Assembly: GCA_963796275.1 (NCBI GenBank)
Contig: CAWCKY010000003.1
Location: 928,001-992,000, forward strand
Source: an uncultured Acidobacteriota bacterium
Lineage (GTDB): Bacteria; Acidobacteriota; Blastocatellia; RBC074
Length of the DNA: 64,000 nt
Direction: 5' to 3'
The position numbers and the translations under genes are program-made. Position 1 is the first letter of the stretch. The number at the start of each line of letters is the position of its first letter. Under the pieces are notes generated by a model that worked only from the letters and a program-made list of their open reading frames with translations, was not told where the DNA came from and made no database searches. Of this stretch, positions 27,719 through 46,734 are shown in pieces.

Positions 27719-27867
27719 AATGAAATTTCCCTCTGGGTAATAACCTGCTCTTCTAACTAAGTCATTTGATTTTTATATGGCAGTCAATTTCGTATAAGCA
27801 CCGCAAGCCCTAGCCAATGGTGCTTTTAATCGGATCGATCTATGTCATATAGCTTCTTGCCGTCAAC

Positions 27868-29721: not shown

Positions 29722-30118
29722 TAAGCCTCCGTTGAGAAAGCATAAACTTTATCGGTTAATTATAGCGGGCACTTGAGTTAGTAAAAGTTAGCATGCCCTC
29801 GTCTTGTTGGCGAGCGCCACTAGTCTATGAAATGTATCATCACCGAGCGAGTAGATGCAAAAAAGTTGAGCACCAACTTGGATAGTGATAAAAGCTGTCG
29901 TACGGTTTGGATAACTTTTTGAAAAAACGGTTTTTTGAATTCAGGATTGGCTGCTGAGAACCCGTTGCTGAACCCTCGCAGGGTTATTAAGACTGTCTAT
30001 CATGACCGATTGGCTGAGGGAGGCTCAATCGAATAATCAGCAGGAACGAAGCGACCGCGCCGCGAAGATCGAGGTAATCCGGCGTTGCATTATATAAATT
30101 CCACAAGAGGAGTCGTTC

Positions 30119-30883
30119 ATGGCATCACAAAAGATGAGAATCCTTTCTAGTTGCATCCTTATTACAACCGCTATTTTGCTGGCTGCGCTGGTTTCCGGGG
30201 CGGAGCAAAAAAGATCTACCGCGATCGTCGAAGAGCCGATAATTACCGGCTTCAAAAAAACATACACGGCATCCGTCTCCGACGCAGTTGAACTGGTTAC
30301 GGGCAAGCGAGGCTTTATGTCCCACGATATGCGACCTGTGGTCTCGGGACAGATCGTCGGGCGTGCCGTAACATCACTGGTCAAACCTGCGTCTCCCGAG
30401 AATGCCACACCTACGCTCTCCACCAAGCATTCGGTCGAGATGATCGATAATGCAAAGCCAGGTGAAGTGGGGGTGATAGTAATGGAAAATGGGCTGGACG
30501 TTGCCGCCATTGGAAATCTGATGGCGACGGCGGCGAAAGAGCGCGGCATGGCCGGGATGGTTCTGGATGGAGGAGTTCGTGATGTTGACGATCTGCGCAC
30601 GATGCGTTTGACCGTCTACGCGCGTTCAGTTGTGCCTTCTACGGCGGTCGGCCGGTTCGCCACAGTAGCCCGGAACATTCCGGTCGAATGTGCAGGTGTA
30701 ACGGTCAGACCCGGCGATATTATAGTGGCGAACGATGACGGCGTGGTCGTTGTGCCGCAAGAGCGTGCGGAGGAGGTGCTCAAGCGCGCGCTCGAGATCG
30801 ACGAGCGCGAGAAGAAGATGTATCCGCTCATCCGCAAACATAAGGGGCTTCAGAAAGCGATCGAGACATTCAATCGTATTTGA
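30119..30883 (+). CDS. RraA/HMG-aldolase family protein with signal peptide
   Basis: TASVSDA, GNLMA, DGGVRD, VRPGDIIVANDDGVVVVP. Confidence 0.9.
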   Translation: MASQKMRILSSCILITTAILLAALVSGAEQKRSTAIVEEPIITGFKKTYTASVSDAVELVTGKRGFMSHDMRPVVSGQIVGRAVTSLVKPASPENATPTLSTKHSVEMIDNAKPGEVGVIVMENGLDVAAIGNLMATAAKERGMAGMVLDGGVRDVDDLRTMRLTVYARSVVPSTAVGRFATVARNIPVECAGVTVRPGDIIVANDDGVVVVPQERAEEVLKRALEIDEREKKMYPLIRKHKGLQKAIETFNRI

Positions 30884-30886: not shown

Positions 30887-32194
30887 CTACCATCGAACTT
30901 TGTGCTGGTCCTGTGGATATTTGGGGTCCCATTTTTTCAACAGCTCATGGCGTGTCTTGATGCGCGGTATATTTTCCCTGAGCGCGGCCATCTTGTCGGA
31001 ATCTATTTCGACGCCGAGGCCGGGGCCCTCAGGCAAACGCATCTTTCCGGCTTTGAACTGCAACATTGGCCCTTTGATGATGTCCTGAGTCGTCCAGGGA
31101 TAGTGGGTGTCCGCATGATAGTTGACGCGCGAAATGGCGCAGTTCATGTGCGTCATCATCGCCATCGAGATGCCGAGATGGTTGTTGCTATGTCCCGAAC
31201 ATCCCCAATTCAACGCTTCACAGATCGCCGCCCAGTATCGCACGTTGTTCAATCCGCCCATGTAATGGTTGTCGAGGAGGACGATGTCGATTGAACCCTT
31301 CTGAACGGCGGGGATGATATGTTCCATCCTCGTCACTACCATATTGGTGGCAAGCGGAATTTTCGTTTGTTTGCGGACAGCGGCCATGCCGTCGAGCCCC
31401 GGTGTCGGGTCTTCCAGATATTCCATCTCCAGATTCTCGATTGCCCTGGCGACGCGCACCGATGTCTCCACGCCCCAGGCTGCGTTCGGATCGATGCGTA
31501 GTGGGGCTTGGGGGAATGCGGTGCGCATCAATCGCAATGCCTCGATCTCTTTATCCGGATCGAGCACGCCGCCTTTGAATTTGCATGACGTGAAACCGTA
31601 TTTCCTATTGAAATCGGCGAACTCGCGGGCCACCGCTTCGGGCGTTGTGATATCCGGGCCGTCAGGGACTGGCATGACGAAGAAGATGTATGCTGAATAG
31701 GGAGCCTCCTCCCGGTAAGCGCCTCCGATCAGATCGACCACTCGCCGATCGATAACTCTGCCGATGATGTCGAGGCAGGCGACCTCTACCGCGCCGAACG
31801 CATTGTTGTTCTTGATATTCCGGCGGAAGTATTCGATCTCGAACGGATCGCGTCCCAGCACTACGTCGCGTGCAGCCTCGATCTCCTTGATTTGCGGGCC
31901 TATCTCGGCGATGCCCTTGTAACCATTATCGGTTTCAAGCTCGAGAATTGTGCGTTTGAAATGCGAATCGTGCACGTTCCAGGAGTTAAGCAGCGCATAA
32001 TCGGGCGAAGCTACGAGCGTCGCCGTCATCTTGCTGATCTTCATCTTGCTGCGCGGGGGCAATGCGCGCGGGTTGCCGCTGCGTTTTACACCGTAGGCGT
32101 TACGATCGAAAGCCAGGACCATGTCTTCGATACTGCTGAGTCCGGTTACGCCAGCCGCTGTAGCTATCCAGTTGCGACGACTCCAATCAGTCAT
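30887..32194 (-). CDS. Glucarate dehydratase-like enolase-superfamily enzyme with Tat signal
   Basis: SRRNWI, KFKGGV, RIDPN, YLEDP, LATNM, HSNNHLGIS, DTHYPW, PGLGVE. Confidence 0.9.
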   Translation of the reverse strand: MTDWSRRNWIATAAGVTGLSSIEDMVLAFDRNAYGVKRSGNPRALPPRSKMKISKMTATLVASPDYALLNSWNVHDSHFKRTILELETDNGYKGIAEIGPQIKEIEAARDVVLGRDPFEIEYFRRNIKNNNAFGAVEVACLDIIGRVIDRRVVDLIGGAYREEAPYSAYIFFVMPVPDGPDITTPEAVAREFADFNRKYGFTSCKFKGGVLDPDKEIEALRLMRTAFPQAPLRIDPNAAWGVETSVRVARAIENLEMEYLEDPTPGLDGMAAVRKQTKIPLATNMVVTRMEHIIPAVQKGSIDIVLLDNHYMGGLNNVRYWAAICEALNWGCSGHSNNHLGISMAMMTHMNCAISRVNYHADTHYPWTTQDIIKGPMLQFKAGKMRLPEGPGLGVEIDSDKMAALRENIPRIKTRHELLKKWDPKYPQDQHKVRW

Positions 32195-32217
32195 GGTTGC
32201 TCCTTGGGAAATTGTTG

Positions 32218-32284
32218 GGAGTTCCGCCTTCAGGCGGTCAGGAAATCATGCGAACAGAAAAAGACCGCGTAAACGCGGAACTCC
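32218..32284. repeat. REP-like doublet (GGAGTTCCGCCTTCAGGCGG...CCGCGTAAACGCGGAACTCC)
   Basis: Two inverted palindromic arms with GGAG feet. Confidence 0.65.
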
Positions 32285-32305
32285 AAACGCGGTATCACAT
32301 GCTCT

Positions 32306-33067
32306 TCAGGTCCGCATGGCCTGCAGATAACTGCGACAAGCCGAGCTCAATAAAGACTCAAGACCGATCACGATGTACTTCGCACCGCGCTCTCTCCAGG
32401 CTTGGGCAGCCTGAACATTAGACACAAGCACACCGAGCGCTTTGTCGGATTGATTAACGGCAGTGATGATGCGATTCAGAGCGGCGTGCATCGTCGAATG
32501 CTCGGTATCGCCCGGCACGCCGAGCGAATGCGACAGGTCGGTCTGCCCAATGAAGATCACGTCGATATCCGGCACTTCGATGATCTCGGCGATCTGTTCG
32601 GCGGCGGTGCCGGTTTCAACCTGGGCAATAACCATCGTTTCCTTGTTGGCTTGTACGACGTAGTCTTTAAATGGTTGGCGTTGCGCATAATCGTCCGCCC
32701 GCACTCCGGCTAATCCGCGTACCCCGCGTGGATGATATTTGACTGCCCGCACTGCGGCCTCTGCCTCCGCCTTAGAATTGATCATCGGGATTTGAGCGCC
32801 CTGGATGCCTGTGTCGAGGTAACGAAGAATTATGGGCGGCTGGTTGGTCGTTACGCGCACGAGCGTCGTGATATCGTGCAATTCAGCGGCACGCGCCAGA
32901 TTCTCGCAATCGCGCGGTTCAAGCGTGCCGTGTTCGCCGTCGAACAGAATGAAGTCCCAGCCCTGATAACCGAGAACATCTACGATGCCGGGTTCAGGGT
33001 ATCGGTAAAAGCAGCCGAACACAGTCTCACCCGCAGTTAGCTTTGCTTTAGTCTTGTTAACTCGCAC
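32306..33067 (-). CDS. HpcH/HpaI aldolase family protein
   Basis: FDGEHG, LVRV, YHPRGVRG, AQVET, FIGQTDLSHSLG; GTG start. Confidence 0.93.
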   Translation of the reverse strand: MRVNKTKAKLTAGETVFGCFYRYPEPGIVDVLGYQGWDFILFDGEHGTLEPRDCENLARAAELHDITTLVRVTTNQPPIILRYLDTGIQGAQIPMINSKAEAEAAVRAVKYHPRGVRGLAGVRADDYAQRQPFKDYVVQANKETMVIAQVETGTAAEQIAEIIEVPDIDVIFIGQTDLSHSLGVPGDTEHSTMHAALNRIITAVNQSDKALGVLVSNVQAAQAWRERGAKYIVIGLESLLSSACRSYLQAMRT

Positions 33068-33186
33068 TCTAACCTCTCATATCCGGGGGGAACGCCAGTT
33101 TCATTATGACTTGGAAATGATTGTTCGGCGGATAGACTAAGGCTGAATCGGGTTATAGCACAAGGCCCGATGATGCCATTGACAAT

Positions 33187-34134
33187 TCAGTTGTCAAAAA
33201 TACCGTTCCACAGAGCGCGAATATAGGCTGCATTGCATCCACAACACCCGCCAAGATATCCGATGCCTTCGGCCTTTGCCATACGGCCGATATCGGAGAA
33301 CTCTTTTCTCGCCACCTGAATCGTCTCCATCTCGTCCGGGAATTCAGGGAGACGGGTGAAGCATGGGGTTTCATCCGTAGTTCGGAAGGCCGCAGGCTGA
33401 GCTGCTAACGGGATATCGACTGCTGAACGCATCTCGCGCAAAACCTTCAACATTCTATCCGGCTCCTGCTCGCAGTTCGCCCCCACGAGGTGGGCGCCGG
33501 CGGCGTTCATTTGCCGGGCGCACTCAGCCGGCGAGTGCCCATCGTTCGATTGATCCAGGCGGGGCCGGAAGCTCATCGTGGCGATCAGCGGCAGCCGGCT
33601 TCCGCGCGCGCAATCGAGCGCGATCAACATCTCTTCGAGATGGAAGAAAGTTTCGAAGATCAGAAAATCCACGCCGGCTTCGGCCAGAAGGCGTACCTGC
33701 TCGGTCAGCAACTCACTCACATAAGCGGCTGCACCGCGCCCTTCGCGCTCGAAGAGCTGTGTGCGTGAGACCGATCCTGCCACCAGGGCTCTCCCGGCTG
33801 CCGCGTCGCGCGCGATCTCTACCGCGGCCCGATTGATCGCCTCGGTCTCACCCCCGTAGCCGGCCCGGGTCAGCTTCTCTCTGGTGCCGAAGAAAGTCAG
33901 CGCCTGTAATACCTGAGCCCCTGCGTCTAGAAATTCGAGGTGCAACTGGCGTAAAGCCTCGGGGTGTTCAATAGCTACTTCGGGCGTAAATTGCCCGCTG
34001 CCTCGTCCTGTCCCCACTTTCTCGCGCTTCGAGCCGCTATCGACATAGCCGCGCCGTTCGAGTTCGATCAGATACCCGCCGTCTCCAAGTACGATCCCCT
34101 GCTCTTTGATCAGGCCTAAAATATCTGCTCTCAT
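33187..34134 (-). CDS. Homocysteine S-methyltransferase family protein, BHMT-like
   Basis: GDGGYLIELERRGYV, TPEVAIEHPEALRQLH.EF, GANC and GGCCG zinc ligands. Confidence 0.92.
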   Translation of the reverse strand: MRADILGLIKEQGIVLGDGGYLIELERRGYVDSGSKREKVGTGRGSGQFTPEVAIEHPEALRQLHLEFLDAGAQVLQALTFFGTREKLTRAGYGGETEAINRAAVEIARDAAAGRALVAGSVSRTQLFEREGRGAAAYVSELLTEQVRLLAEAGVDFLIFETFFHLEEMLIALDCARGSRLPLIATMSFRPRLDQSNDGHSPAECARQMNAAGAHLVGANCEQEPDRMLKVLREMRSAVDIPLAAQPAAFRTTDETPCFTRLPEFPDEMETIQVARKEFSDIGRMAKAEGIGYLGGCCGCNAAYIRALWNGIFDN

Positions 34135-35072
34135 CTATTCTCCTTCATAGAATCATGATGGCGCCAAAAGTTCATGGCGGCGCCGATCACGCCATTCTCA
34201 GCAAGCGCGGCGTGTTGAATGGGAAGATTGCGTCTGGCGTCCGCCCAGATGTGTTCGCGTGTCGAGCGGACGAAGCAATCCCAATATAGTCCTTCGCAAA
34301 GCCCCAACCCGCCGCCGACCACAATTGCTTCCGGATCGAGCACATTAACCAGTAACCCCGCAGTCACGCCCAGCGCGGCGCCCCCGGTGCGGAGTATTTC
34401 GCAGGCCCACTCGTCGCCGTCTGACGCGGCTTTGATAATTTGCTCAGCCCGTCCGATCTTCTCTGAAGCATAAGGTTGATAACGCCTGGCCAGGGCGGGG
34501 CCTGAAGCATATTCTTCAAGTGTGATTTGGTTGCTTGCTCCACATTCCGCGCATATTGAAGTCAGCGGGCTGTTGGCGCAGACCAATGCGTCTCCATGAG
34601 CGCCGGCATAAGGCTGCTTGTCTTGCACTAGACAGCAACTGATGCCAGTTCCGACCGTGAGATATAGGAAAATCTCGTACTCTCGGCCCGATCCGAGCAT
34701 CGCTTCAGCTAGCGCGGCGGCGCGCACGTCTGCTTCGACTGTTGTCGGAGCGATCTTCGAGAGGCGTTGTTGAACAGGCCGCCCGCACCACTTAATAATA
34801 TGGCCGCTCGTGACATTACCCTGCAGATCGACCAATTCGGCCACACATAGCCCAATTCCCGCGACCTTCAGCCTCGATTGACTAGCCCTTTTTATCAGTT
34901 CGACTGAGAGCAACTCGACCTCTTGCAACAGTGCCTCACCACCGCGCTCGGCGCCGGTGGGAATCAGGCAAGGGAACAGAACGTCACCCGCCTGCGTCAC
35001 CACTCCTGCGGCGATCTTGCTTCCTCCGACATCAATGCCGACCGCGCAAATTGAGGTCAGGTCTTCAAGCAT
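34131..35072 (-). CDS. ROK family sugar kinase
   Basis: GIDVGGSKI, EADVRAAALAE, YLTVGTGIS, LEEYASG, PEAIVVGGG; 4-nt overlap with the methyltransferase. Confidence 0.92.
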   Translation of the reverse strand: MLEDLTSICAVGIDVGGSKIAAGVVTQAGDVLFPCLIPTGAERGGEALLQEVELLSVELIKRASQSRLKVAGIGLCVAELVDLQGNVTSGHIIKWCGRPVQQRLSKIAPTTVEADVRAAALAEAMLGSGREYEIFLYLTVGTGISCCLVQDKQPYAGAHGDALVCANSPLTSICAECGASNQITLEEYASGPALARRYQPYASEKIGRAEQIIKAASDGDEWACEILRTGGAALGVTAGLLVNVLDPEAIVVGGGLGLCEGLYWDCFVRSTREHIWADARRNLPIQHAALAENGVIGAAMNFWRHHDSMKENR

Positions 35073-35084
35073 AGGAGCCCCCAG

Positions 35085-35219
35085 ATCATTTGTCATTCGT
35101 CATTTGTCATTCGTCATTTGTCACTTGTCACTTGTCATTCGTCACTTGTATCGAACCGGTCAATTTCTCTGCAATGACAACTGTTAAATGACAAATGACA
35201 AATGACAAATTACAAATGA
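35085..35219. repeat. Heptamer inverted tandem repeat (TGTCATT/CGTCATT)n...(AATGACA)n
   Basis: Roughly 9 copies facing roughly 5 inverted copies inside the operon. Confidence 0.85.
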
Positions 35220-36320
35220 TTACTGCTCATCCGACGGCCGAGTGTGGTCGTGCAGATGATGCAGATCGCGCCTCTGTTCAATCAAGCTCAGATCGAGGTC
35301 GCGAAAGCGGGAGGAGATCGTCATCCATCGACTTTCCTTGGCAGATCGCTCGGCGGCCTCCACTATCTCGAGCAGATGCAGGTCGTGCGTGATCTCGGCC
35401 AGGGGCGCCCTCCCTTCAAATAATGCAGTGATGGTTTCGGCCAACCCATCAGTCCACATCCATGTCCCCTCCACCGCTTCGTATTCCTCCCAACGGCCCG
35501 CCTCATTCCGCCAGATTTCAAATCCACGCGGATCCCAATCGTCGCCGAGCAGGTTGGCGGTGCCTTCAGATCCGTAGATTTCCAAGGCAGGGCGCCGGTA
35601 TCGCTGGATCGCGTGGCTCGAGACGATGTTGGAAAGCGCTCCCGACTCATGTCGCAGGATGACGTGAGAGACGTCAGGCCCGGGATCGGTTATTTCACAG
35701 GCGCCGATGGATCGCCGTTCGATTGCCGTATGCTCGGCGGCCAGGATTTCAATGCCGGGTCCCAATAGAGATGTGAGGGTCTTCAGATTATATATGCCGA
35801 CTTCCGCCAGCGGCCCGATCCGGCCCTGATGATACCAGTTGGCCCAGGTTGATCCCGCATTGCCGTAGAGCCCGCGCGCTGAATGCGGTTTGCCAATGGC
35901 CCCATTACGAATCTGTTCCCAAAAGGCGCGAAATGTCGGCGCAAGATGGACGAAAGGTGCCGCCATGAGATGAAGACCCCGATTATCAGCCAACTCCGCC
36001 AGTTCTTCTCCTTCGGCGCGAGTCATGGCTAGAGGCTTCTCGACAACTGCGTGTTTGTTATGCTCCAACGCTTGCCGAACTAAGACGGCATGGGTTTCCG
36101 GCGGTGTGATGATAACTACGACATCGATTTCTGATTCCATCACTTGGCCGGGGGATGCAACCAGTTGTAGCCCCGGCCGCCGGCTCTGCAATTCAGCCCA
36201 CTTTTCCCGGCGCCTCGCGCAGACCGGGCCGAGCAGCGCGTAGCCTTTAGGTATAAGGCGATCGAGCGCTCGCAGATAAGCCCACAGTACGTTGCCCGCG
36301 CCGATAATGCCCACCCGCAC
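35220..36320 (-). CDS. Gfo/Idh/MocA family NAD(P)-dependent oxidoreductase
   Basis: VGIIGAG, TPPETHA, VEKPLA, EIYGSEG; GTG start inferred (ORF track extends to 36407). Confidence 0.9.
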   Translation of the reverse strand: MRVGIIGAGNVLWAYLRALDRLIPKGYALLGPVCARRREKWAELQSRRPGLQLVASPGQVMESEIDVVVIITPPETHAVLVRQALEHNKHAVVEKPLAMTRAEGEELAELADNRGLHLMAAPFVHLAPTFRAFWEQIRNGAIGKPHSARGLYGNAGSTWANWYHQGRIGPLAEVGIYNLKTLTSLLGPGIEILAAEHTAIERRSIGACEITDPGPDVSHVILRHESGALSNIVSSHAIQRYRRPALEIYGSEGTANLLGDDWDPRGFEIWRNEAGRWEEYEAVEGTWMWTDGLAETITALFEGRAPLAEITHDLHLLEIVEAAERSAKESRWMTISSRFRDLDLSLIEQRRDLHHLHDHTRPSDEQ

Positions 36321-36342
36321 CGCACGGTTTTCGGGGGCGAAT

Positions 36343-36771
36343 CTATTTTTCTTCTTCTGCCTCATAGGAGAGCATTGCCCCGCCGGCGACGGCGAGCGCG
36401 ATTCCAATCCACTGCCTGAAGGTCAATATTTCAGCCAGAAAGACGCGCGCCAGGACGATAGTGACCAATGGGTAAAGCGCTGTCAGCGGAACTGCGACCG
36501 ATGCTTTGGCGCCTTTCTCCAGCGCTCCGAAGAGAGCCCACGAGCCGAACCCATTAGCCGCGCCACCCAACAAACCGATCATAATTACGTGCCAGCTCAG
36601 GCCGGTGAGATTGCCCTCGCGCCAAAGCAGCGGAAGCAGCGCCGCAAACCCCACTATCAGCCAGATGAGGAGCGAACGCGACGAAATGCGGTTGGTCCCC
36701 AATTTCTGAAGCAACCCGACGACGCCCCAGCAGAGCACAGCAACGCACGCATAGAAAACCCAACTATCCAT
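36343..36771 (-). CDS. Single-domain EamA/DMT transporter
   Basis: 5 TM helices, KASVAVPLTALYP, AEILTFRQWIG. Confidence 0.9.
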   Translation of the reverse strand: MDSWVFYACVAVLCWGVVGLLQKLGTNRISSRSLLIWLIVGFAALLPLLWREGNLTGLSWHVIMIGLLGGAANGFGSWALFGALEKGAKASVAVPLTALYPLVTIVLARVFLAEILTFRQWIGIALAVAGGAMLSYEAEEEK

Positions 36772-38377
36772 CGAATCGCCTCAAAACGAGAGGATAATGA
36801 TGGCGGCCAGCGCCATTACCATACCCGCAGCCTGAACACGGTTGATCCGTTCGCGCAGGATCACAACGGCGAGCGCTATTGTCAGCAGCGGGAAGAGAGC
36901 CGTGAACGGACCGACGATTGACGCTTTGCCCCCTGATAACGCTGCGTAATAGGCCAGCATCCCCAATCCAGTGAAGACTCCGTTCAGTATTCCATAGATC
37001 GCTCCGCGTCGATCCGTCTCGACTCTGAATCCGAGCTGAGCCCAGGCCAGCAGCGAAGGCGGTATGATTCCAACGGTGAAGAGAATCTGGAGTTGTTGCG
37101 GCGATACCCGATCTGATCCAAGTTTTGATAAAAATCCCCAGATGCCCCACCATACAATGCAGAGGAGGGCATATAGCAACCATGTTGAACGAAATCGAGG
37201 TGCCAATTTCGACTTCGACGATGCGGCCTTTTCTTCGATCATGATGCCCGCCCTTTGTTACCGATGCATTCCCGGCCAATCGAGATTCTTTATCGTCCCG
37301 CAATATCCCGCCTTCCTGCTCGACAATATATGAGCAGTACCGTAGAGAATCGCAGTCTACCCCGCGTATCCGCGAGAGACGTTCGGCCGCAAGCTGGGAG
37401 GGCATGATGTCGGTGAGGAATTGCCACCCTAGTGGCGATGCCGGTAACGAAAAAACAAGTTCACCCAGCGAGCCGGAGACTTCTTCACCGATCAGCATTA
37501 CTCTAGCCCCGAGACTCTGCAGATCCTTTGCCACTGCCAGGTCTTCAGTACGCAACGTATGCTGATCGAGCCAGATGCAGAAACGCATATCGCGCTTAAT
37601 TACCTCCTGCGGCCCGTGACGAAAGGCCCCCGTCGTCATCGACGTGGCAGGAGATTTGGCAGCCTCTTCCCAAAGCAACCGGGCTCCGTGACAACTGGCC
37701 ACGCTCGCTCCCCGGGCCAGAAAATAGACCGGATGGTCGGATGCGATCCAATCGCTTGCTTCAATCTTTTCGCGCCAAAGGCCAATATCTTCTTGGACGG
37801 AGAGCAGCGTTTCGATCAATGAAGGGCCGAGAGGGGCATCGGGCTTTCCGGCCGCCGCGCCAACCTTCGTACTCGCTGTTGCTCCTATTGTCGCGGTTAC
37901 TACCAGCCCGGCCGCCATAGCCAGTGCCGTGTACATCATCACCGAGACTGCGTGATCGAAAGAGAGATCGACGCAGACCGATGCATCGCTCGCAAGCGCC
38001 AGGGGGCTGTCGGGCGTGTTGGTGATCGCCACGATATTCGCATCATTAGTTCTCGCTTTGTCGAGTAGATTGACGATCTCAACGCTTCGGCCGCTTCGTG
38101 AAATGACGATGATCACCGAACCGGAAGCCAGGTTGGAAAAGTGCAGAAGCTCCGAAGCCTCGATCAGTCCGACCGGAAAGCCCGCCCGGTGAAAAAAAGA
38201 TGCCCCCGCCATCGCCGCGTGCCAGCTCGCCCCGATGCCGGTGAGGTAGATATAATTTGCCTGATTGAGAATGAAAGCCGCCTTGTCGATTGAGGCTCTT
38301 TCTTCTTCCAGGAGGTAATGAAGCGATCTGATCAACTCTCCCGGTTGTCTGAGAATGTCAGCCAGAAATTTGGTCAT
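36764..38377 (-). CDS. Double-SIS domain sugar-phosphate isomerase/deaminase (GlmS C-term/FrlB/AgaS-like); conserved part ends near 37290 but the ORF runs on
   Basis: DILRQP, TGIGASWHA, ISRSGRS, ITNTPDSPLA, LWEEAAK, FRHGPQE; last ~170 aa look like off-frame read-through. Confidence 0.8.
   Translation of the reverse strand: MTKFLADILRQPGELIRSLHYLLEEERASIDKAAFILNQANYIYLTGIGASWHAAMAGASFFHRAGFPVGLIEASELLHFSNLASGSVIIVISRSGRSVEIVNLLDKARTNDANIVAITNTPDSPLALASDASVCVDLSFDHAVSVMMYTALAMAAGLVVTATIGATASTKVGAAAGKPDAPLGPSLIETLLSVQEDIGLWREKIEASDWIASDHPVYFLARGASVASCHGARLLWEEAAKSPATSMTTGAFRHGPQEVIKRDMRFCIWLDQHTLRTEDLAVAKDLQSLGARVMLIGEEVSGSLGELVFSLPASPLGWQFLTDIMPSQLAAERLSRIRGVDCDSLRYCSYIVEQEGGILRDDKESRLAGNASVTKGGHHDRRKGRIVEVEIGTSISFNMVAICPPLHCMVGHLGIFIKTWIRSGIAATTPDSLHRWNHTAFAAGLGSARIQSRDGSTRSDLWNTERSLHWIGDAGLLRSVIRGQSVNRRSVHGSLPAADNSARRCDPARTDQPCSGCGYGNGAGRHHYPLVLRRFDG
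36781..37242 (-). CDS. Single-domain EamA/DMT transporter
   Basis: WWGIWGFLSK, KASIVGPFTALFP, LRERIN; paralogous to its neighbour. Confidence 0.88.
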   Translation of the reverse strand: MIEEKAASSKSKLAPRFRSTWLLYALLCIVWWGIWGFLSKLGSDRVSPQQLQILFTVGIIPPSLLAWAQLGFRVETDRRGAIYGILNGVFTGLGMLAYYAALSGGKASIVGPFTALFPLLTIALAVVILRERINRVQAAGMVMALAAIIILSF

Positions 38378-38392
38378 CCTAGCAAAGTCCTT

Positions 38393-39376
38393 TCATTTGG
38401 CAGGGGTCAGCACGATATTCCGATACCAGACTTTTCCGTAATCGCCCTGGAGCATGAGCGGGCCCGGGCTGCCCTCGTCGCTCTCGAGTGCTGCGCCTGT
38501 GATTCCTGGAATCTCTTCATCATCGATGATCGTGACGCCGTTGAGACTGATCGTCACTCTGCGTCCCACGAGTGTGGCGTCGATCGTCTGCCACTTGCCG
38601 GCCGGCCGCGCGGGATTCGTTGCCGGTGTGAGAAAGCCATATACCCCACCTAGGCGATGGCTGTCAGGAGGCTTGCCGAAACTGTCTTCGAGCTCGATCT
38701 CGTAGCGACCGCGAAGATAAACGCCGCTATCGCTTCCCGCCGCTATCTTGAATTCGAGATGGATGCGAAAGTCATCGAACTTTTCCGCCGTCACCAGATT
38801 TGCTCCGCTGGCTTCATTGACCAGAATTCCGTCTTCTATTTTCCACTTGCTCGGTTTGTTCGCCGGGTAAGACATCCATCCGGACAGGTCTTTCCCGTTG
38901 AACAAGCGGATAGATTTGCCCCAGTCAGGCGCACCGGTCCGCGCGAGCGCTGGCGCTCTGGTGGCCCTCCAGCGCTGCTCTTCGCCGCTCCAGTGAGTGG
39001 TTCCGCTCAGCCGGCCATCTGACAGCCTGCCTATAAAAATGAGGTCATGCGGCCAACCTCCTTCACGTGCGATGATGAATTCAAGCTGGCCGGCGTCGAA
39101 GCGGATGCTTTTGAGCGGCTGCGCGGCATCCCACCTCCCGACGAAGCGCCCGGTTAGATGATCGCCGGAATCGGATATTTCGATCCAGCTCGGGTAACTG
39201 CCGTCCTTACCTGTCACGGTGATATCCCATCTGCCAAGAACTGTTTCTATCTGCATCGGCAGAGAAGAAACGGTAGGATTCACCACAAAAATCACAAAAG
39301 TACAAAGAAGGCAGACGAAGGTTCTTCTTTTGTTTTGTCTATTTTTTGCCGTTTTGTGTTCTTTGTGGTGAATCAT
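38393..39376 (-). CDS. DUF1080 (3-keto-glycoside hydrolase/hydratase) family protein, exported
   Basis: LFNGKDLSGW, HLEFK, DSGVYLRGRYE, GKWQT, LNGV, GPLMLQGD, YRNI. Confidence 0.92.
   Translation of the reverse strand: MIHHKEHKTAKNRQNKRRTFVCLLCTFVIFVVNPTVSSLPMQIETVLGRWDITVTGKDGSYPSWIEISDSGDHLTGRFVGRWDAAQPLKSIRFDAGQLEFIIAREGGWPHDLIFIGRLSDGRLSGTTHWSGEEQRWRATRAPALARTGAPDWGKSIRLFNGKDLSGWMSYPANKPSKWKIEDGILVNEASGANLVTAEKFDDFRIHLEFKIAAGSDSGVYLRGRYEIELEDSFGKPPDSHRLGGVYGFLTPATNPARPAGKWQTIDATLVGRRVTISLNGVTIIDDEEIPGITGAALESDEGSPGPLMLQGDYGKVWYRNIVLTPAK
39278..39373. repeat. Palindromic element ATTCACCACAAA...TTTGTGGTGAAT inside the DUF1080 5' coding region
   Basis: Perfect 12-bp terminal inverted repeat; related arms at 50084-50171 and 57904. 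Confidence 0.7.
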
Positions 39377-39387
39377 TTCTCTCAACC

Positions 39388-42300: not shown

Positions 42301-42924
42301 GAATGCCGCCGACCACGTGCCGTTGCCGCCGTTGGGGTTGACCATCGTAACACCATTGAGAATCGCCTCTCCGGCGTATTGTACGCTTCCGTTGAAATGA
42401 GCTCCGATGACGCTGCCGTCAGGCGTGGTGACGCCAGGGAAGAGTGTGGCGAATGAGGCCGACGAGCGTGGGCCGCCCGCGACGATGAGTGGGAGATCGT
42501 TGACGGTCTTCGGCTCGATGCTCCCGCTTTGAGTGGCATCTTCGCGATTTATCGGCGAGACATCGGCGTTAATCTCGACGATTTCACTCGTCGCCCCGAT
42601 CTTTAATTGTGCATCGATACGCGCTTTTTCGTTGAGCGATATCCGCACGCCACTACGGACGTAGCTCTGAAACCCGTCGGCAGAGAACTTGAGTTCGTAA
42701 TCGCCCGCGGCGAGGTTGAGAAAACTATATAGCCCGCCGGCATCGGTCGCGATCTTGAAATCTATGCCGGTGCTGATGGCTCTCAGCGTGACGTTGGCGT
42801 TCGGGATCACGGCTCCGCTCTGATCGGTGATCACACCGTTGATCGATGCGCTGGTGTTCTGCGCTGCAGCTGCTCCGTGAACAAGCGCCAGGAATAAGGC
42901 GGCTGACAGGAAGTGATATTTCAT
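39388..42924 (-). CDS. Oar-type TonB-dependent outer-membrane receptor with carboxypeptidase-regulatory-like N-domain
   Basis: Signal peptide, GVITDQSGAVIPNANV, GTNQFHG, NNFGGAIGGP, LNYGLRWE, APRFGIAY, C-terminal F. Confidence 0.93.
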   Translation of the reverse strand: MKYHFLSAALFLALVHGAAAAQNTSASINGVITDQSGAVIPNANVTLRAISTGIDFKIATDAGGLYSFLNLAAGDYELKFSADGFQSYVRSGVRISLNEKARIDAQLKIGATSEIVEINADVSPINREDATQSGSIEPKTVNDLPLIVAGGPRSSASFATLFPGVTTPDGSVIGAHFNGSVQYAGEAILNGVTMVNPNGGNGTWSAAFDFPQSPDMVSELKILNGNYEPQYGSTGAVVFIMETKAGTNQFHGGLYEYHRNTIFNANQFGIGEERPGRPTNIQNNFGGAIGGPVKLPLAWSQRNKTFFFVNWEGYRIRGGLVRPVLSIPSLKNRQGDFTDWVDASGNLIPIYDPATTRFVDVVNSETLQTDRRVVRDQFMGCDGNTPNVICPSDPRLRNSLALQWFKFLPEPTFPGAVNNYLPPALPGGFSADANILNVRIDEYLGNNDHFTFTIFKRNNLRQETTTLPPQISTGQLNYKTTWINRVNWDHTFSPTLLNHFSIGYNHDHFFGGGIDVPYTDELPKIQGVARHAYPSAIRFLDDKFEGYGSNQGSAEENSWPAPAVVGSNVMTWVKGRHTLKFGAEYRHMTNNVPRVTGEAGEFNFSRANTGLLGINSGSPIASFLLEQVDSANFDIRNTTRSIGMQSSWIAHAGDTWQVFPRLSLNYGLRWETVAPSFEKHDFFSFLDPVGLNPSAGNRPGRLAFAGNDAGAASFGGRYPEKRYFKAFAPRFGIAYSPRENTVVRLGYGIFFDAGFIPGWEGGIRSDGFNANPSFSSTEGGLVPAFILSNGVPQNFTRPPFLDSGFLNGQDAPIYRPADANRLPYSQQWNLTIENQATNTINVSAAYVGSKGTRLISQINPLNALDPRLLNQYGSALLTAFEPGQTSLNGVPVPFAGWVEQMQACPPTLAQALLPFPQYCGNIYGINENAGNSTYHSLQLKAEKRFSRGLWFLTSYTFSKMLTNADSNQPGNLGISPFEQRRSKGLALDDIPHSFSLAMTYDLPFGKGQRWLSGDGVVNHLIGGWRVSNILRFSSGTPFSFRSSNCTVPSQFALACIPGLLPGKNPWAQSKDNFDPSGPLFDIDSFEPNDSFSTVTYYGNGARITNYRGFGYRNQDFAIFKDVRITERVTFQLRGEAFNLWNNHTLRGFGADITGTSFGLWDGSVTAPRNIQVAGRITF

Positions 42925-42956
42925 TTGTGCCTCCTTGCAGGGTTTGGGGGATTGGC

Positions 42957-43068
42957 CTCACGCCCAACGCAAAGGCGCGCAGAGAAGAAGAGGGGAAAAG
43001 AGAAACTGCTTTTTCTCTTTTCTTCTTCTTTCTTTTTCACTCTTGGCGTCTAAGCGCGTTTGCGTGAG
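42957..43068. repeat. Long intergenic palindrome (CTCACGC...GCGTGAG) with purine/pyrimidine arms
   Basis: Imperfect hairpin between the GMC and TonB receptor genes. Confidence 0.6.
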
Positions 43069-43077
43069 ATCTTGAAC

Positions 43078-44766
43078 TTAAGTATGGACGCCGCGTTTTA
43101 AGTTCTCGAAGATGTACTCGCAAGTGCGCAGCGTGAAGGCCATGATCGAAAGCGTCGTCGTCTTATCCGTGGCGAAAGGGAAGATACTCGCGTCGCAGAT
43201 GTAGATATTCGACACGTCGTGGCACTGGGAAAAACCATTGGTGACAGATTTCTTAGGGTCACTGCCGAATCGGCATGCGCCGGTCTCGTGCAGGCTGTGG
43301 CCCGGGGAAAGCGGTTCGGAACCTGTTCCCCAGACTTCGCCGCCCGCTCGTCGAATGATCTCGCTGCAGACATGTTTAGAGTGCTCCCACATCATCAGTT
43401 CGTTCGCCTCCCAGTTGAAATGGAAGCGGGCCACGGGGATCCCGAAGATGTCTTTTGCGTTCGGGTCGAGGTCGAGGTAGTTGCCGGGAGACGGAAGCGA
43501 AGGAGCTTGCAGCAGGAAACTGACCGGAGCCGGGTAATATCGCTTGATGTTGCGTTTGAATTCCGAGCCGAATCCTTCAAATTGATGGTAATGGCCGGGA
43601 AACCCGCCGCACCCGCCGTAAGGATAGACGGAGTACCCGCGAATGAATTTTTCTTCGAAGGGGCTTTTCAAGTTCTGCCAGCGCGGCATCCAGACGACGG
43701 TCGAGTCGGCGACATTGTCGGGGGTCGCGGGTTGCCCCACCAGCTGCGGCAGGAAGCCCCAGGCAGGACTGCCGTAAAGGTGATCGCTGATGTTTCGGCC
43801 GACCTGACCGCTCGAATTGGCGACGCCGGTGGGCCAGTGGCGCGATTTCGAATTCAGCAGAATCTTCGCCGACTCGCAGCACGAAGCGGCGACGATCACC
43901 GCCTTACCGTAGACCTTGACCTCCTGCCGCGTGGAGCGGTCGATGTAGGAAACCCCCGTCGCCTTGCGGCCGTCCGGAGAGACGAGAATGCTTCTGACGT
44001 GCGCATTCGGGCGTAATTCCAATCTGCCTGTGCGCTCGGCTTCCGGCAGGAAGAACATAGTCGGCGAAAAGAAAGATCCGGTCTCACACCCCGTCGTACA
44101 TCCGGCGCAATAATGGCAGGCGGGATGCCCGTTGTGGCTGACCGTCAGTTGGGCGCACCGGTCGTGTACGTAGGGGATACCCATCCGGTCGCATGCGCTC
44201 TTGAGAACGTAATCGAAACAGCGCAGCTTGAAGGGCGGCAGATATTCCCCGTCCGGATTGCTCGGGCGGTTCTGAATAGTGCTAGCCACCCCGATCAGTT
44301 TTTCTATGCGGCTGTAGTATGGTGCGATCTCTTCGTAAGTGATGGGCCAGTCTGCGTCGAACCCATCGAGTGAGGCGGCTTTGAGATCAATCTCCCCAAA
44401 GCGCGCAGAAGAGCGCCCCCAGAAGTTGGCCTTGCCGCCCGTCGCCTTGCATCGCGTCCACGTCCAACGGCTTCCCGGAGCAACGGTGTAAGTTATGTCG
44501 TGTTCAAAGAGGTCGAAGGTGGCTTCCTGCTCGCAGTCGCCCTGGCGCAGATGGCGCGTCTTCGGATTGCCCAGACCGCGATACTGCAGTTCGAATCTGT
44601 GTCGATGATTGCCGTAATCTTTCGCCGGGTCGAGGCGCTTTCCCGAGTTGAGCGCCAGCACTTTGAGTCCCGCCTCGCACAGGAACTTGATCGCGGTGCT
44701 ACCGCCGGCGCCCGTGCCGATGACAATAACGTCGTAAACTTTTCTGCTTTTTTGGAGGAACGGCAT
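43078..44766 (-). CDS. GMC oxidoreductase (glycoside 3-dehydrogenase flavoprotein-like)
   Basis: IGTGAGG, GGKANFWG, DWPITYEEIAPYY, CHYCAGCTTGC Fe-S motif, HETGACR. Confidence 0.93.
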   Translation of the reverse strand: MPFLQKSRKVYDVIVIGTGAGGSTAIKFLCEAGLKVLALNSGKRLDPAKDYGNHRHRFELQYRGLGNPKTRHLRQGDCEQEATFDLFEHDITYTVAPGSRWTWTRCKATGGKANFWGRSSARFGEIDLKAASLDGFDADWPITYEEIAPYYSRIEKLIGVASTIQNRPSNPDGEYLPPFKLRCFDYVLKSACDRMGIPYVHDRCAQLTVSHNGHPACHYCAGCTTGCETGSFFSPTMFFLPEAERTGRLELRPNAHVRSILVSPDGRKATGVSYIDRSTRQEVKVYGKAVIVAASCCESAKILLNSKSRHWPTGVANSSGQVGRNISDHLYGSPAWGFLPQLVGQPATPDNVADSTVVWMPRWQNLKSPFEEKFIRGYSVYPYGGCGGFPGHYHQFEGFGSEFKRNIKRYYPAPVSFLLQAPSLPSPGNYLDLDPNAKDIFGIPVARFHFNWEANELMMWEHSKHVCSEIIRRAGGEVWGTGSEPLSPGHSLHETGACRFGSDPKKSVTNGFSQCHDVSNIYICDASIFPFATDKTTTLSIMAFTLRTCEYIFENLKRGVHT

Positions 44767-44772
44767 AAATAA

Positions 44773-44848
44773 CAGTTTTCAGTTTTCAGTTTTTAGTATT
44801 CAGTGGCTGGCCGACTACCATCTAACTGAAAACTAAAACTGAAAACTA
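44773..44848. repeat. Heptamer inverted repeat (CAGTTTT)n...(AAAACTG/AAAACTA)n
   Basis: Fills the intergenic gap and supplies the TAG stop of the upstream gene. Confidence 0.8.
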
Positions 44849-45481
44849 ATTTGGTGGCGGCAGGCGTTTATGTTCCGGATCGTCGAGGTGAGGGCATCCG
44901 GGAACTTCGCGCCAGTACTTCTTGAGCCCCGGATAGTTGATCTCCTCCATTCCGATGCGCGAAGTGTAGAAACCGATGACTGTGTATTCGCGGATGAGTT
45001 GGAAGAAATCACGCCCATCCTCCTCACCTACACGGTGTCGACCCTTGTAAGCAAGATGAGTGAGCATTTCGATCTGCTCAGCTTCCGCCAGTTCACTGAA
45101 CCGGCTTCCGAATAGATAGCGCGAGTGAGCATCGACCCACTTGATCCCAGAGCGGAAGCGAAATTGCAGGCTCGGGTCGCTCAATACTATGAAGTCGATG
45201 AACTCGCTGACCCCCGCTTCACGCGCGCCCGGCGTGCCATCCGTCGGTATGATGAGTTCGCTGAGCCTCGCGATGATCTCGTATTCATCGATCGTGAAAA
45301 ACTGCGGTTTGTAAATCAACCCCGCCGGCGATTTCTGAAGCGCGGCCGGTTCGATGGGGTTACCGCCATTTTCATGGGAGAGAGCGAAAGCCCAATTCAC
45401 AAACCCTGGGAACCGGGCTGCACCAGATGCAAGCGATAGCGCGCGTAACATCTCACGCCGTTCCAGATTCTGGCCTGCCAT
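44846..45481 (-). CDS. Gluconate 2-dehydrogenase subunit 3 family protein (Tat-exported partner of the GMC enzyme)
   Basis: LERREML, LIIPTDGTPGAREAGVSEFID, GFYTSRIG. Confidence 0.92.
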   Translation of the reverse strand: MAGQNLERREMLRALSLASGAARFPGFVNWAFALSHENGGNPIEPAALQKSPAGLIYKPQFFTIDEYEIIARLSELIIPTDGTPGAREAGVSEFIDFIVLSDPSLQFRFRSGIKWVDAHSRYLFGSRFSELAEAEQIEMLTHLAYKGRHRVGEEDGRDFFQLIREYTVIGFYTSRIGMEEINYPGLKKYWREVPGCPHLDDPEHKRLPPPN

Positions 45482-45516
45482 GAGCGATCTCCGTCAATTT
45501 GATTTGGTTTCTGGTG

Positions 45517-45547
45517 TAGGAAAGCGTTTTCCGAAAGCGCTTTCCTA
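45517..45547. promoter_or_regulatory. Tandem LacI-family operators GGAAAGCGTTTTCC / CGAAAGCGCTTTCC
   Basis: CG-centred palindromes between the operon's putative promoter (TTGACA on minus strand at 45582-45587) and its first ATG; divergent LacI gene. Confidence 0.75.
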
Positions 45548-45591
45548 AAGGTTGAAAAACGGTATCACGGAGCCTAGAATCTGTCAATAAA

Positions 45592-45720
45592 CAGTTTTCA
45601 GTTTTCAGTCGGTTACGGAAGCATACGACTGAAGACTGAGACTGAAGACTGACAGAAGACTGAGACTAAAGACTTAAAAACTAAAAACTAAAAACTAAAA
45701 ACTAAAAACTGAAAACTGAA
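45592..45720. repeat. Heptamer tandem/inverted repeats ending at the LacI ATG
   Basis: CAGTTTT arm, GACTGAA/GACTGA units, then about 6 AAAACT(A/G) units. Confidence 0.85.
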
Positions 45721-46734
45721 ATGGGATATACAATGAAGGACGTGGCTGAGCGGGCGGGCGTATCGCTAGCTACCGTATCACACGTCTTGAATAAGACGCG
45801 ATACACGAGGCCGGAGACCGAGGGCAAGGTGCTCGCCGTCGTCGAAGAGCTCAACTATCACGCCAATGCACACGCACGGCGGCTGGCCATGAAGCAGACC
45901 GATCTTTTCGGGCTGGTTATCTCGGAGATCTCAAATCCCTTTTTCCCGGAGATCGTCAACGGTTTTCAGACGGCCGCATGGAAGGAGGGGTTCGATACTC
46001 TTCTTTGCAATACCGAGCACGACGCTACGCGGTCGACCAAGGCAATCCGCAATATGCTTCAGAGCAGCGTGCGAGGGGTGGCTGTTATGAGTTCGGCGCT
46101 CGACCGGAAAGCGGTCGAGCTTCTCAATGCATCGCGGATCGGCGTTGTTTTTTACAACCTCGGCCCCGCGGAAAAATTGATCAGCAACATACAGATCAAC
46201 TATTCGGCCGGTATTTCACAATCGATCGATCATCTTATGGAACTGGGGCACCGCGAGATCGCGGTTATCTCGGGGCCTCAGACCAACCGTACAGCGGTCA
46301 CTTTGCGAAAGGCCATCGTAGAGGAATTGCAGAACCGCCGCCTGCGCCCATTCCCGATCCTCGAAAGCAACTTCAAGGTCGATGGAGGCGCGTCTGCAGT
46401 TCGCGTAATTATCGCCCAATCCTCGATACCCACCGCAATCTTCTGCAGCAACGACCTGATCGCGATGGGCGCAATGAGCGCACTGGAAGAAGCGGGAGTA
46501 AAGGTGCCGGAAGACGTCTCCGTTGTGGGATTTGATGATATCTACTTTGCACGGTTGTCACGCCCGCCGCTCACCACCGTCCGCATTCCGCGGGAGCAAT
46601 TGGGCGAGCTGGCATTTAAAGCCTTGCACAAAATATCTTGCTCCAAGCGTCAAATGGGTATCAATTACCAGATCGAAACGGAACTGGTGATCCGCAAATC
46701 CACGGCTCCCCCGCCGCATAATCCAGGTAATTGA
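45721..46734 (+). CDS. LacI family transcriptional regulator
   Basis: TMKDVAERAGVSLATVSHVLN, NPFF, NDLIAMG, VSVVGFDD, PPLTT. Confidence 0.97.
   Translation: MGYTMKDVAERAGVSLATVSHVLNKTRYTRPETEGKVLAVVEELNYHANAHARRLAMKQTDLFGLVISEISNPFFPEIVNGFQTAAWKEGFDTLLCNTEHDATRSTKAIRNMLQSSVRGVAVMSSALDRKAVELLNASRIGVVFYNLGPAEKLISNIQINYSAGISQSIDHLMELGHREIAVISGPQTNRTAVTLRKAIVEELQNRRLRPFPILESNFKVDGGASAVRVIIAQSSIPTAIFCSNDLIAMGAMSALEEAGVKVPEDVSVVGFDDIYFARLSRPPLTTVRIPREQLGELAFKALHKISCSKRQMGINYQIETELVIRKSTAPPPHNPGN

Follow-up and report, generated by a model that had tools for sequence, protein, structure and literature searches.

What would a homocysteine methyltransferase do inside a gene cluster for sugar breakdown? 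The question is raised by positions 30887-46734 of the window, the whole 64,000-nucleotide stretch of an uncultured Acidobacteriota genome analysed here. Twelve same-direction minus-strand open reading frames (ORFs) stand there next to a divergent gene for a LacI-family repressor (ORF list, Pfam and NCBIfam). One of the twelve products, a relative of betaine-homocysteine methyltransferase (BHMT) hereafter named HMT, is the odd member of the gene run; a homocysteine methyltransferase as a fixed member of a sugar operon is not described in the literature searched. We propose, tentatively, that ten of these genes form together with LacI a LacI-repressed catabolic module for a glycosidically bound amino sugar with a transferable methyl group. 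The substrate would most likely be an N-methylated, possibly quaternary, hexosamine.

Conserved gene linkage around HMT

HMT was taken as the anchor of the analysis. A scan of one genome per species yielded 188 stretches encoding HMT relatives, and the best 80 were taken with up to 10 kb on each side; many of these loci are metagenome bins. Neighbours were counted by tblastn with the window proteins and with proteins from the loci (E<1e-8, coverage of at least 40%), by default within 8 kb of HMT. The 80 loci carry at least six phylum labels (Acidobacteriota, Verrucomicrobiota, Chloroflexota, Planctomycetota, Actinomycetota and Gemmatimonadota). Across these labels HMT is 69-85% identical to the window copy, and no member of the cluster is better conserved or more constant. 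The best 120 database relatives are 301-399 aa long and share 72-92% identity with it; the few that are named are Blastocatellia, Pyrinomonadaceae, Bryobacteraceae, Verrucomicrobia and Chloroflexi bins.

A gene for a ROK-family sugar kinase was found near HMT in 69 of the 80 loci, paired EamA genes in 58 and a gene for a Gfo/Idh/MocA oxidoreductase (hereafter Gfo) in 57. A double-SIS protein (hereafter SIS) was encoded in 32 loci and a NagB-type protein in 22; no locus had both (0/80). Genes for DUF1080 proteins were near HMT in 24 loci, LacI in 16 (16-17 adjoining the module), a TonB-dependent receptor (TBDR) in 12, and a GMC-family flavoprotein dehydrogenase in seven, or in 11 when counted anywhere in the locus. 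Relatives of the HpcH/HpaI aldolase (HpcH), of RraA and of GH127 were found near HMT in none of the 80 loci, and the MR_MLE family of the dehydratase in one (L087, a family-level match). Of the 80 loci, 47 extend for at least 4 kb to each side of HMT; in these, ROK was present in 44, a deaminase gene in 37, EamA in 40, Gfo in 36, and HpcH and MR_MLE in none.

The closest locus (L013) has the order of the window, with identities of 88% for GMC, 74% for TBDR, 67% for SIS, 82 and 85% for the EamA proteins, 81% for Gfo, 72% for ROK and 83% for HMT. The order from GMC to HMT is repeated at 67-88% identity in the Blastocatellia bins L013, L015, L016 and L070, and relatives of the TonB receptor (59-79% identity) occur in module loci of Blastocatellia, Pyrinomonadaceae and Bryobacteraceae. 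GMC orthologues (61-88% identity) were found at 11 of the 80 HMT loci and in genome G313, and in module loci they are adjoined by relatives of the Gluconate_2-dh3 small subunit (36-48% identity). Four arrangements of this pair were observed in acidobacterial loci: upstream on the same strand, like in the window; divergent, in Terriglobales loci; between HMT and the EamA genes (L038, L045, L049, L052); and divergent from a NagB-type operon, in G313. That the pair is kept beside the module in four gene orders argues for selection on the linkage, and linkage kept through rearrangement suggests a joint function of the periplasmic dehydrogenase with the cytoplasmic operon. In its NagB-type form, this operon occurs with exported DUF1080 proteins in loci L076-L092.

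The conserved unit is ten genes, from the small subunit to HMT, plus LacI, and not twelve. A preliminary description of this DNA had presented a single joined locus under LacI control and proposed a gene-neighbourhood search as a check. Its run of twelve co-directional minus-strand genes of given families behind tandem LacI operators agrees with the ORFs, the Pfam matches and the two palindromes described below, and LacI orthologues with similar tandem palindromes do accompany module loci. The joined locus was borne out in part: the GMC/small-subunit/DUF1080 block and the series SIS-EamA-EamA-Gfo-ROK-HMT recur together, but the aldolase and the dehydratase family are not conserved with them.

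Some loci deviate in composition. The EamA pair is replaced by a CUT1-type ABC system in Chloroflexi loci. The Chloroflexota module of L021 (1478-10966) encodes ROK, a CUT1 ABC transporter, two Gfo/Idh/MocA proteins, a NagB-type protein, a short-chain dehydrogenase/reductase (SDR) of the epimerase/dehydratase family and HMT, with no GMC and no DUF1080; electron transfer flavoprotein (ETF) alpha/beta and a flavin adenine dinucleotide (FAD) oxidoreductase come next. Fusion proteins (HMT+NagB, HMT+SIS and EamA+HMT) were rejected as linkage evidence. Each was seen in one sequence only, its HMT domain is truncated, and it is most likely a frameshift or gene-calling artefact of adjacent genes.

The aldolase and the Tat-signal dehydratase

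The last two genes of the run encode the HpcH aldolase and a glucarate-dehydratase-like protein of the enolase superfamily. We judged them to belong to neighbouring units outside the module because of the linkage counts, the context of the dehydratase orthologues and, as a detail, a hairpin and promoter pattern. It is very improbable that all twelve genes make up one pathway and one transcript. They do lie on the same strand, with gaps of 111-119 nt (HMT-aldolase and aldolase-dehydratase) and no divergent gene between them. Dehydratase orthologues also adjoin GMC/small-subunit pairs elsewhere, which could reflect a general link to periplasmic flavoprotein dehydrogenases. Those orthologues (66-70% identity, aligned from residue 2-3) were found in four of 200 other genomes of the phylum, all of one genus; other matches reached at most 39% identity and started at residue 29-50. 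However, in all four genomes (L093-L096) the adjoining GMC/small-subunit pair is a different one, just 35-36% identical to that of the window, and no HpcH relative was found at these four loci. The one annotated locus (L094) has a DUF7133/HEAT protein after the dehydratase.

The counts of zero for HpcH, RraA and GH127 and of one for MR_MLE likewise argue against a twelve-gene pathway. In L013 and L014, HMT is followed by PSCyt/DUF1501 genes and no aldolase, the other three closest bins holding little or no sequence past HMT. In the window, the aldolase and dehydratase genes are separated by a terminator-like GC-rich hairpin with a T-run (32278-32265), and the aldolase gene is closely preceded by a promoter-like site (33197-33170); the region does not exceed shuffled sequence in its totals of such patterns, and we use them as supporting detail only.

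The N-terminus of the dehydratase carries the motif SRRNWIATAAGV, and the twin-arginine motif is kept in the two orthologues aligned, which suggests that the signal for twin-arginine translocation (Tat) is real. An exported member of the normally cytoplasmic enolase superfamily would be unusual. Beside the dehydratase, 24715-30883 encodes a PfkB kinase, an Iso_dh-family dehydrogenase, a GDSL esterase, a GH127 protein with a weak match to aceric acid hydrolase (27868-29721, just outside the gene run) and, on the other strand, an RraA-like aldolase/decarboxylase. This looks like a separate sugar-acid neighbourhood, to which the HpcH aldolase may belong.

A putative deaminase slot filled by two families

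Residues 11-345 of SIS align to positions 261-591 of the 601-position NCBIfam GlmS profile, the full length of its isomerase half. SIS scores far below every NCBIfam equivalog cut-off (for NagB-II, 39.8 vs 430) and, judged from its sequence, is a distinct subfamily. A NagB-type gene encoding 240-270 aa occupies the SIS slot in G313 and in loci of Verrucomicrobiota, Planctomycetota and Chloroflexota. The NagB-type proteins score 145-246 bits on models of glucosamine-6-phosphate (GlcN-6-P) deaminase and galactosamine-6-phosphate (GalN-6-P) isomerase but 46-67 on the 6-phosphogluconolactonase model, and one of them matches Bacillus NagB at an E value of 3e-42 with the LDxY and GHxGFNEP motifs intact. 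The scores on NagB profiles, 180-246 bits, and the kept deaminase motifs ruled out an assignment as 6-phosphogluconolactonase. NagB/NagB-II and AgaI/AgaS are known as two unrelated families that both deaminate hexosamine-6-phosphate. The replacement of SIS by a NagB-type protein, never with both present, is the best evidence for a 2-amino sugar phosphate as the compound handled by the pathway, and the double-SIS protein is read as a putative amino-sugar-6-phosphate deaminase/isomerase.

In the window, the SIS frame has no stop where six aligned orthologues all end. It continues for about 175 codons to 36764 (537 aa), passing through the first EamA gene in a different frame. About 10 nt ahead of the EamA start codon (ATG at 37242; detail 37240-37300) there is a TAA that is off by one base from the SIS frame. 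The missing stop and the out-of-frame TAA suggest a 1-nt indel, which could be an error of the assembly or else a frameshift of recent origin.

Nine module ROK kinases were aligned, and all keep the catalytic Asp (D123) and an invariant Arg at position 125. At the place of ExGH they read AGAHG, AGAHG, KGANG, HGAHG, AGARG, AGVRG, LGARG, SGARG and LGARG, and the Cys-rich motif is lost in two of the nine. We take ExGH and the Cys-rich zinc motif to be the canonical ROK motifs. The module kinases thus appear to form an atypical subfamily, compatible with an unusual sugar. The closest solved structures of SIS, ROK, Gfo, GMC, DUF1080 and a Chloroflexi solute-binding protein provided family names and no substrate clue.

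HMT keeps the homocysteine site of BHMT and differs at the donor site

The closest solved relatives of HMT are rat and human BHMT (E 7e-51, 35-36% identity). The AlphaFold2 (AF2) model of HMT, with a predicted local distance difference test (pLDDT) of 85, matches 1LT8_A with a template modelling (TM) score of 0.82 (E 4.5e-23), followed by the homocysteine domains of MetH and by MmuM. Residues D18, E161, C221, C297 and C298 align to D26, E159, C217, C299 and C300 of BHMT and are invariant in 13 orthologues. In BHMT, C217/C299/C300 are presumably the zinc triad, and D26 (in the DGG motif) and E159 presumably bind homocysteine. As far as residue conservation indicates, HMT very likely carries a zinc-activated homocysteine thiol.

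The donor site looks different. F49, F82 and T162 of HMT stand at W44, Y77 and Y160 of BHMT, which we take to be the betaine contacts. A 13-residue insert, SGSKREKVGTGRG, rich in Gly, Ser, Arg and Lys, lies directly before F49, beside the donor site, and is mostly invariant in 13 HMT sequences. The C-terminal oligomerisation arm of BHMT (about 320-406) is absent, HMT aligning to BHMT 14-310. We infer that the methyl donor is probably other than glycine betaine. The insert could, as a conjecture, hold an anionic group such as a sugar phosphate, which would fit the overlap with the kinase gene (the ROK stop and the HMT start overlap by 4 nt). In its most specific form, our proposal would have a quaternary hexosamine-6-phosphate, from a glycoside cleaved oxidatively and without hydrolysis, donate a methyl group to homocysteine via this BHMT-type enzyme and so make the amine removable by a GlcN-6-P-type deaminase. 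We regard this form as possible, if on balance doubtful.

Outside the gene run, 645-2983 of the window encodes an ABC ATPase and a fused permease/OpuAC glycine-betaine-type binding protein, about 30 kb from HMT; no linkage of this OpuAC-type transporter to HMT is conserved in related loci. Neither a conserved onium transporter nor a conserved corrinoid protein was found across the 80 HMT loci. A corrinoid-dependent betaine/methionine system is described in PMC12478193.

HMT might be chemically separate from the sugar. The module would then be an ordinary amino-sugar route for plain glucosamine (GlcN) or galactosamine (GalN) glycosides, chitosan-like or GlcN-inositol-like, and HMT would use a free onium donor (S-methylmethionine, betaine or isomers of S-adenosylmethionine, SAM) and be linked for regulation or nutrition. 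A transporter, the ROK kinase and the deaminase already constitute a complete hexosamine route, the characterised PF02574 enzymes (BHMT, MetH and MmuM) all use free donors, and the OpuAC-type betaine transporter is present in the window. We nevertheless consider this combination unlikely. It does not sit well with HMT being the most constant cluster member and overlapping ROK, nor with the replaced betaine contacts and the family-specific insert; moreover, an onium transporter is conserved nowhere in the 80 loci, and the genome has separate YitJ-like and MetH-like genes.

A second possibility, that HMT is not a methyltransferase at all, receives very little credence from us. Its zinc-thiolate would add or release homocysteine at an electrophilic keto or unsaturated sugar, by C-S chemistry. 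Zinc-thiolate alkyl transfer with non-methyl electrophiles does exist, for example in epoxyalkane:coenzyme M (CoM) transferase of the MetE family; an oxidative route would yield enone intermediates, and the donor pocket of HMT is remodelled. Yet the characterised PF02574 members all transfer methyl groups, with no known precedent in the family for other chemistry, and the strict pairing with a deaminase would be left unexplained.

A third possibility concerns SIS and HMT together. In a Heyns/Amadori-type or opine-like route, a SIS/NagB-type deglycase would free an amino acid or amine from an N-substituted hexosamine-6-phosphate, and HMT would demethylate an onium group on the released aglycone. 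The double-SIS architecture is shared with the deglycases FrlB and GfrE, and SIS lies far under all equivalog cut-offs. The lack of the usual sugar-contact motif in ROK, its invariant Arg 125 and the Arg/Lys/Gly-rich HMT insert could suit an anionic substituent. The NagB-type replacements, however, keep full GlcN-6-P deaminase motifs, no NagB-type deglycase is known to us, and no conserved gene for using an amino-acid aglycone was seen among the module neighbours. We find this route improbable.

The predicted periplasmic oxidative block

The small subunit has an RR motif in its N-terminal sequence ERREMLRAL. The closest solved structures of the GMC protein are the large subunits of FAD-glucose dehydrogenase and fructose dehydrogenase. 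Solved relatives of the DUF1080 protein are named 3-keto-disaccharide hydrolase, an activity that is predicted here. No cytochrome c electron-accepting subunit was found among the genes of 30887-46734, and PSCyt1 proteins were found in just 5 of the 80 related loci. A xylose-isomerase-like TIM-barrel lyase or hydratase was found neither in the gene run nor among the conserved neighbours.

Gene pairs of PSCyt1/PSCyt2/PSD1 (DUF1549/DUF1553) and DUF1501 proteins adjoin the module in 5-8 of the 80 loci, for example at L013 11913-16688, L045 3852-8634 and L051 438-5510. In genomes carrying PSCyt1 pairs, its cytochrome-c-like domain may be the electron acceptor that the module lacks. The GMC large-subunit family is highly expanded: this genome has 6 copies at E<1e-100 and each genome of its family 1-8, which suggests many parallel periplasmic flavoprotein dehydrogenases with differing substrates.

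LacI and its candidate operators

LacI has an N-terminal helix-turn-helix and a periplasmic-binding-protein-like core (Pfam) and is predicted to bind operators. Two CG-centred 14-nt palindromes, GGAAAGCGTTTTCC and CGAAAGCGCTTTCC, start at 45519 and 45532, and these candidate operators lie 38-64 nt upstream of the first gene. Each has one mismatch to GGAAAGCGCTTTCC, the seven other matches in the window all having three. Tandem Repeats Finder (TRF) reports a period of 13 and 2.4 copies on the site.

In acidobacterial loci, orthologues of LacI (55-65% identity) stand beside the module. Of 18 LacI relatives in related loci, 14 are preceded by a CG-centred palindrome of this class, such as GGAACCGGTTTC, and six of the 18 upstream regions have palindrome pairs 13 nt apart, like the window; by our own estimate, made without a shuffled control, chance would give about 0.1 match per 430-nt region. 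Searched genome-wide with at most 2 mismatches, the operator consensus gave 49 sites per strand vs 47 in a reversed control, showing no enrichment and defining no usable regulon. LacI and its clear candidate operators could serve as a biosensor for the inducer.

The leader of the LacI gene is unusual for a repressor gene. Within 45592-45721, a 7-nt tandem array (ACTGAAA/ACTAAAA, about 14 copies) reaches the start codon, and an inverted partner (CAGTTTT, 2.6 copies) lies at 45592-45609; the arms are up to 100% complementary.

Distribution of the module

No HMT, SIS or close GMC orthologue was found in the 40 nearest genomes, G004 included, where the best GMC match reached 44% identity. HMT was present in just one of 400 further genomes of the phylum. 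In a tree of 79 HMT rows (two of the 80 loci were left out for short or interrupted matches), the window groups with Blastocatellia and Pyrinomonadaceae bins (SH-aLRT 98). The tree needs at least 15 changes of phylum label vs a minimum of 6, which fits some lateral transfer, and bins may be mislabelled. A rare and patchy module suggests a niche substrate rather than a bulk polymer.

A tentative route and its weak points

In the route that we propose, the TonB receptor would take up the glycoside, and the Tat-exported GMC/small-subunit dehydrogenase would oxidise a sugar hydroxyl in the periplasm. The exported DUF1080 protein would then split the keto-glycoside without a classical glycosidase, and the two half-size EamA proteins would import the monosaccharide. 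In the cytoplasm, Gfo might reduce or re-configure the keto sugar and ROK might phosphorylate it. HMT would make methionine by transferring a methyl group from the cationic nitrogen onto homocysteine. Finally, SIS would remove the amine and isomerise the sugar phosphate into central metabolism. The order of the Gfo, ROK, HMT and SIS steps is guessed; the localisations, a single ten-gene transcript and the substrate itself are what we infer. Direct results of the computation are the gene families, their conserved linkage, the exchange of SIS for NagB-type proteins, the intact zinc and homocysteine site and the changed donor site.

Two chemical considerations would tie the parts together. A positive charge beside the anomeric carbon should disfavour ordinary glycosidases, which would call for an oxidative route. 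A fully alkylated nitrogen should be barred from the imine step of the deaminase until it is demethylated, which would make HMT indispensable. O-methyl sugars were rejected as substrates, since an ether is chemically an unlikely target for a thiolate and the presence of a deaminase would find no explanation. S-ribosylhomocysteine, breakdown products of SAM, phosphocholine-decorated sugars and betaine-lipid head groups were dropped for want of support.

The preliminary description had already suggested that the substrate is phosphorylated and deaminated and its methyl group salvaged onto homocysteine. The first suggestion is strengthened by the replacement of SIS by a true NagB-type deaminase in other phyla, and the second gains support from HMT as a genuine relative of BHMT with its zinc and homocysteine site intact. 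Its remark that the run lacks a classical glycoside hydrolase, cytochrome c and a xylose-isomerase-like lyase holds in the Pfam scan, which found none of the three among the twelve genes. N-methyl amino sugars, onium glycosides and Amadori compounds, the substrate classes that it named, may be inferred but no more firmly than that.

Several observations weigh against our proposal. N-methylated or quaternary hexosamines are not known to be common environmental compounds, and a literature search showed just inhibitor and analytical uses for them. BHMT-type enzymes are known with fully alkylated onium donors only, and a simple N-methyl amine donor would have no precedent. The role given to the HMT insert is conjecture, and the insert has a pLDDT under 50 in the AF2 model, where residues 254-270 are of low confidence too. 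Known 3-keto routes have a cytochrome c subunit and a sugar-phosphate-isomerase-type lyase, and the run encodes neither; in the closest Blastocatellia loci no DUF1080 gene stands between TBDR and SIS. The window copy of SIS is possibly a damaged gene. Gaps of 123-153 nt (GMC-TBDR and Gfo-ROK) leave room for internal promoters. As for the linkage itself, ROK was not seen in 11 of the 80 loci and the deaminase in 26, partly due to short contigs, and the bins behind many loci are possibly mis-binned. The module is also rare, both among the nearest genomes and in the rest of the phylum.

The conservation of the linkage and of HMT across phylum labels nevertheless points to a defined natural compound in use. 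In the open full-text literature (subscription-only papers and supplements lie outside it), there was no published account of a homocysteine methyltransferase with ROK, SIS, NagB, EamA or amino-sugar catabolism, and papers on the catabolism of methylated glucosamines were absent from the full-text literature searched. The identity of the compound would assign functions to BHMT, atypical ROK and double-SIS subfamilies and to a dedicated GMC/small-subunit dehydrogenase. It would extend oxidative, "non-Koshland" glycoside cleavage to amino sugars and might uncover a new way in which methyl groups from the environment enter methionine. If a quaternary hexosamine-6-phosphate were the donor, HMT would be the first sugar-phosphate-dependent homocysteine methyltransferase. 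It would belong to a previously unknown way of dismantling cationic, glycosidase-resistant amino-sugar glycosides, and would suggest that soils and fresh waters contain a class of methylated amino sugars that has so far gone unrecognised.

Layout of the locus

The predicted features of the gene run are given in Table 1. No signal sequence was seen in the translation of Gfo. A long purine/pyrimidine-rich hairpin with a 19-pair stem lies at 42982-43027, in the 153-nt gap between GMC and the TonB receptor, and may serve in attenuation, processing or termination within the gene run. Elsewhere, the window holds a complete rRNA operon (16S, two tRNAs, 23S and 5S) at 13693-19434 and a thiamine pyrophosphate (TPP) riboswitch preceding thiC at 50023-50249.

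Table 1. Predicted features of the gene run, in window coordinates. DMT, drug/metabolite transporter.
Feature	Position	Strand	Basis or remark
LacI-family repressor	45721..46734	+	Pfam LacI 2e-18, Peripla_BP_3 4.1e-34
Two tandem 14-nt palindromic candidate operators	45519..45545	.	13 nt apart
Gluconate_2-dh3 small subunit, twin-arginine signal	44846..45481	-	PF13618 1.5e-28
GMC flavoprotein dehydrogenase large subunit	43078..44766	-	GMC_oxred_N/C, PF05199/PF00732
TonB-dependent outer-membrane receptor, 1178 aa	39388..42924	-	CarboxypepD_reg PF13620 and OMP_b-brl_4 PF25183 4.5e-173
Exported DUF1080 (3keto-disac_hyd) protein	38393..39385	-	PF06439 1.3e-43
Double-SIS, GlmS-isomerase-like protein	37243..38377	-	SIS 1.9e-23, two stretches, 38377 to about 37290
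Half-size EamA (DMT) membrane protein 1	36781..37242	-	PF00892 9.8e-19, one domain
Half-size EamA (DMT) membrane protein 2	36343..36771	-	PF00892 2.5e-19, one domain
Cytoplasmic Gfo/Idh/MocA oxidoreductase, start codon uncertain	35220..36407	-	PF01408/PF22725
ROK-family sugar kinase without DNA-binding domain	34131..35096	-	PF00480 4e-40
BHMT-like zinc homocysteine S-methyltransferase (HMT), 315 aa	33187..34134	-	PF02574 S-methyl_trans 2.7e-47
HpcH/HpaI aldolase, judged outside the module	32306..33067	-	HpcH_HpaI 3.2e-36
Tat-signal enolase-superfamily, glucarate-dehydratase-like protein, judged outside the module	30887..32194	-	MR_MLE_C 4.7e-54

Comparison with known systems

The locus combines three known kinds of system: oxidative glycoside cleavage, a hexosamine kinase/deaminase pair and BHMT-type methyl transfer. 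With the 3-keto-glycoside routes (Caulobacter LacA/LacC-type, DUF1080, and Gfo/Idh/MocA of Agrobacterium and Bacteroides; papers on such routes are PMC8121099, PMC9007349 and 10.1101/2024.03.25.586180), the locus shares a GMC protein with a Tat-bearing Gluconate_2-dh3 subunit, an exported DUF1080 protein and Gfo/Idh/MocA, with no glycoside hydrolase in the operon. Unlike these routes, it lacks both a cytochrome c subunit and a xylose-isomerase-like lyase or hydratase, and its oxidative unit is coupled to a kinase/deaminase pair for amino sugars and to a homocysteine methyltransferase.

The kinase/deaminase pair resembles NagK/NagB-II of Shewanella and AgaS/AgaI of E. coli in associating a ROK kinase with a double-SIS protein, in a slot that swaps to NagB/AgaI-type proteins elsewhere. 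It differs in that SIS lies below the cut-offs, the ROK motifs are atypical, no NagA deacetylase is present, and Gfo/Idh/MocA and HMT are obligatory companions in the module. Fructoselysine and glucoselysine routes (FrlB/FrlD and GfrE/GfrF) also pair a kinase with a double-SIS enzyme, which acts on an N-substituted sugar phosphate. In contrast to these, the window kinase is of the ROK family and not PfkB or a phosphotransferase system (PTS), a methyltransferase is present, and SIS is replaceable by a true NagB-type deaminase.

Like BHMT (1LT8, 1UMY and 4M3P) and MmuM, HMT has the TIM-barrel fold, the zinc Cys triad and the homocysteine-binding Asp/Glu. Unlike BHMT, it has F, F and T at the betaine-contact positions, the 13-residue insert and no C-terminal arm, and, unlike both BHMT and MmuM, its gene sits inside a sugar operon.

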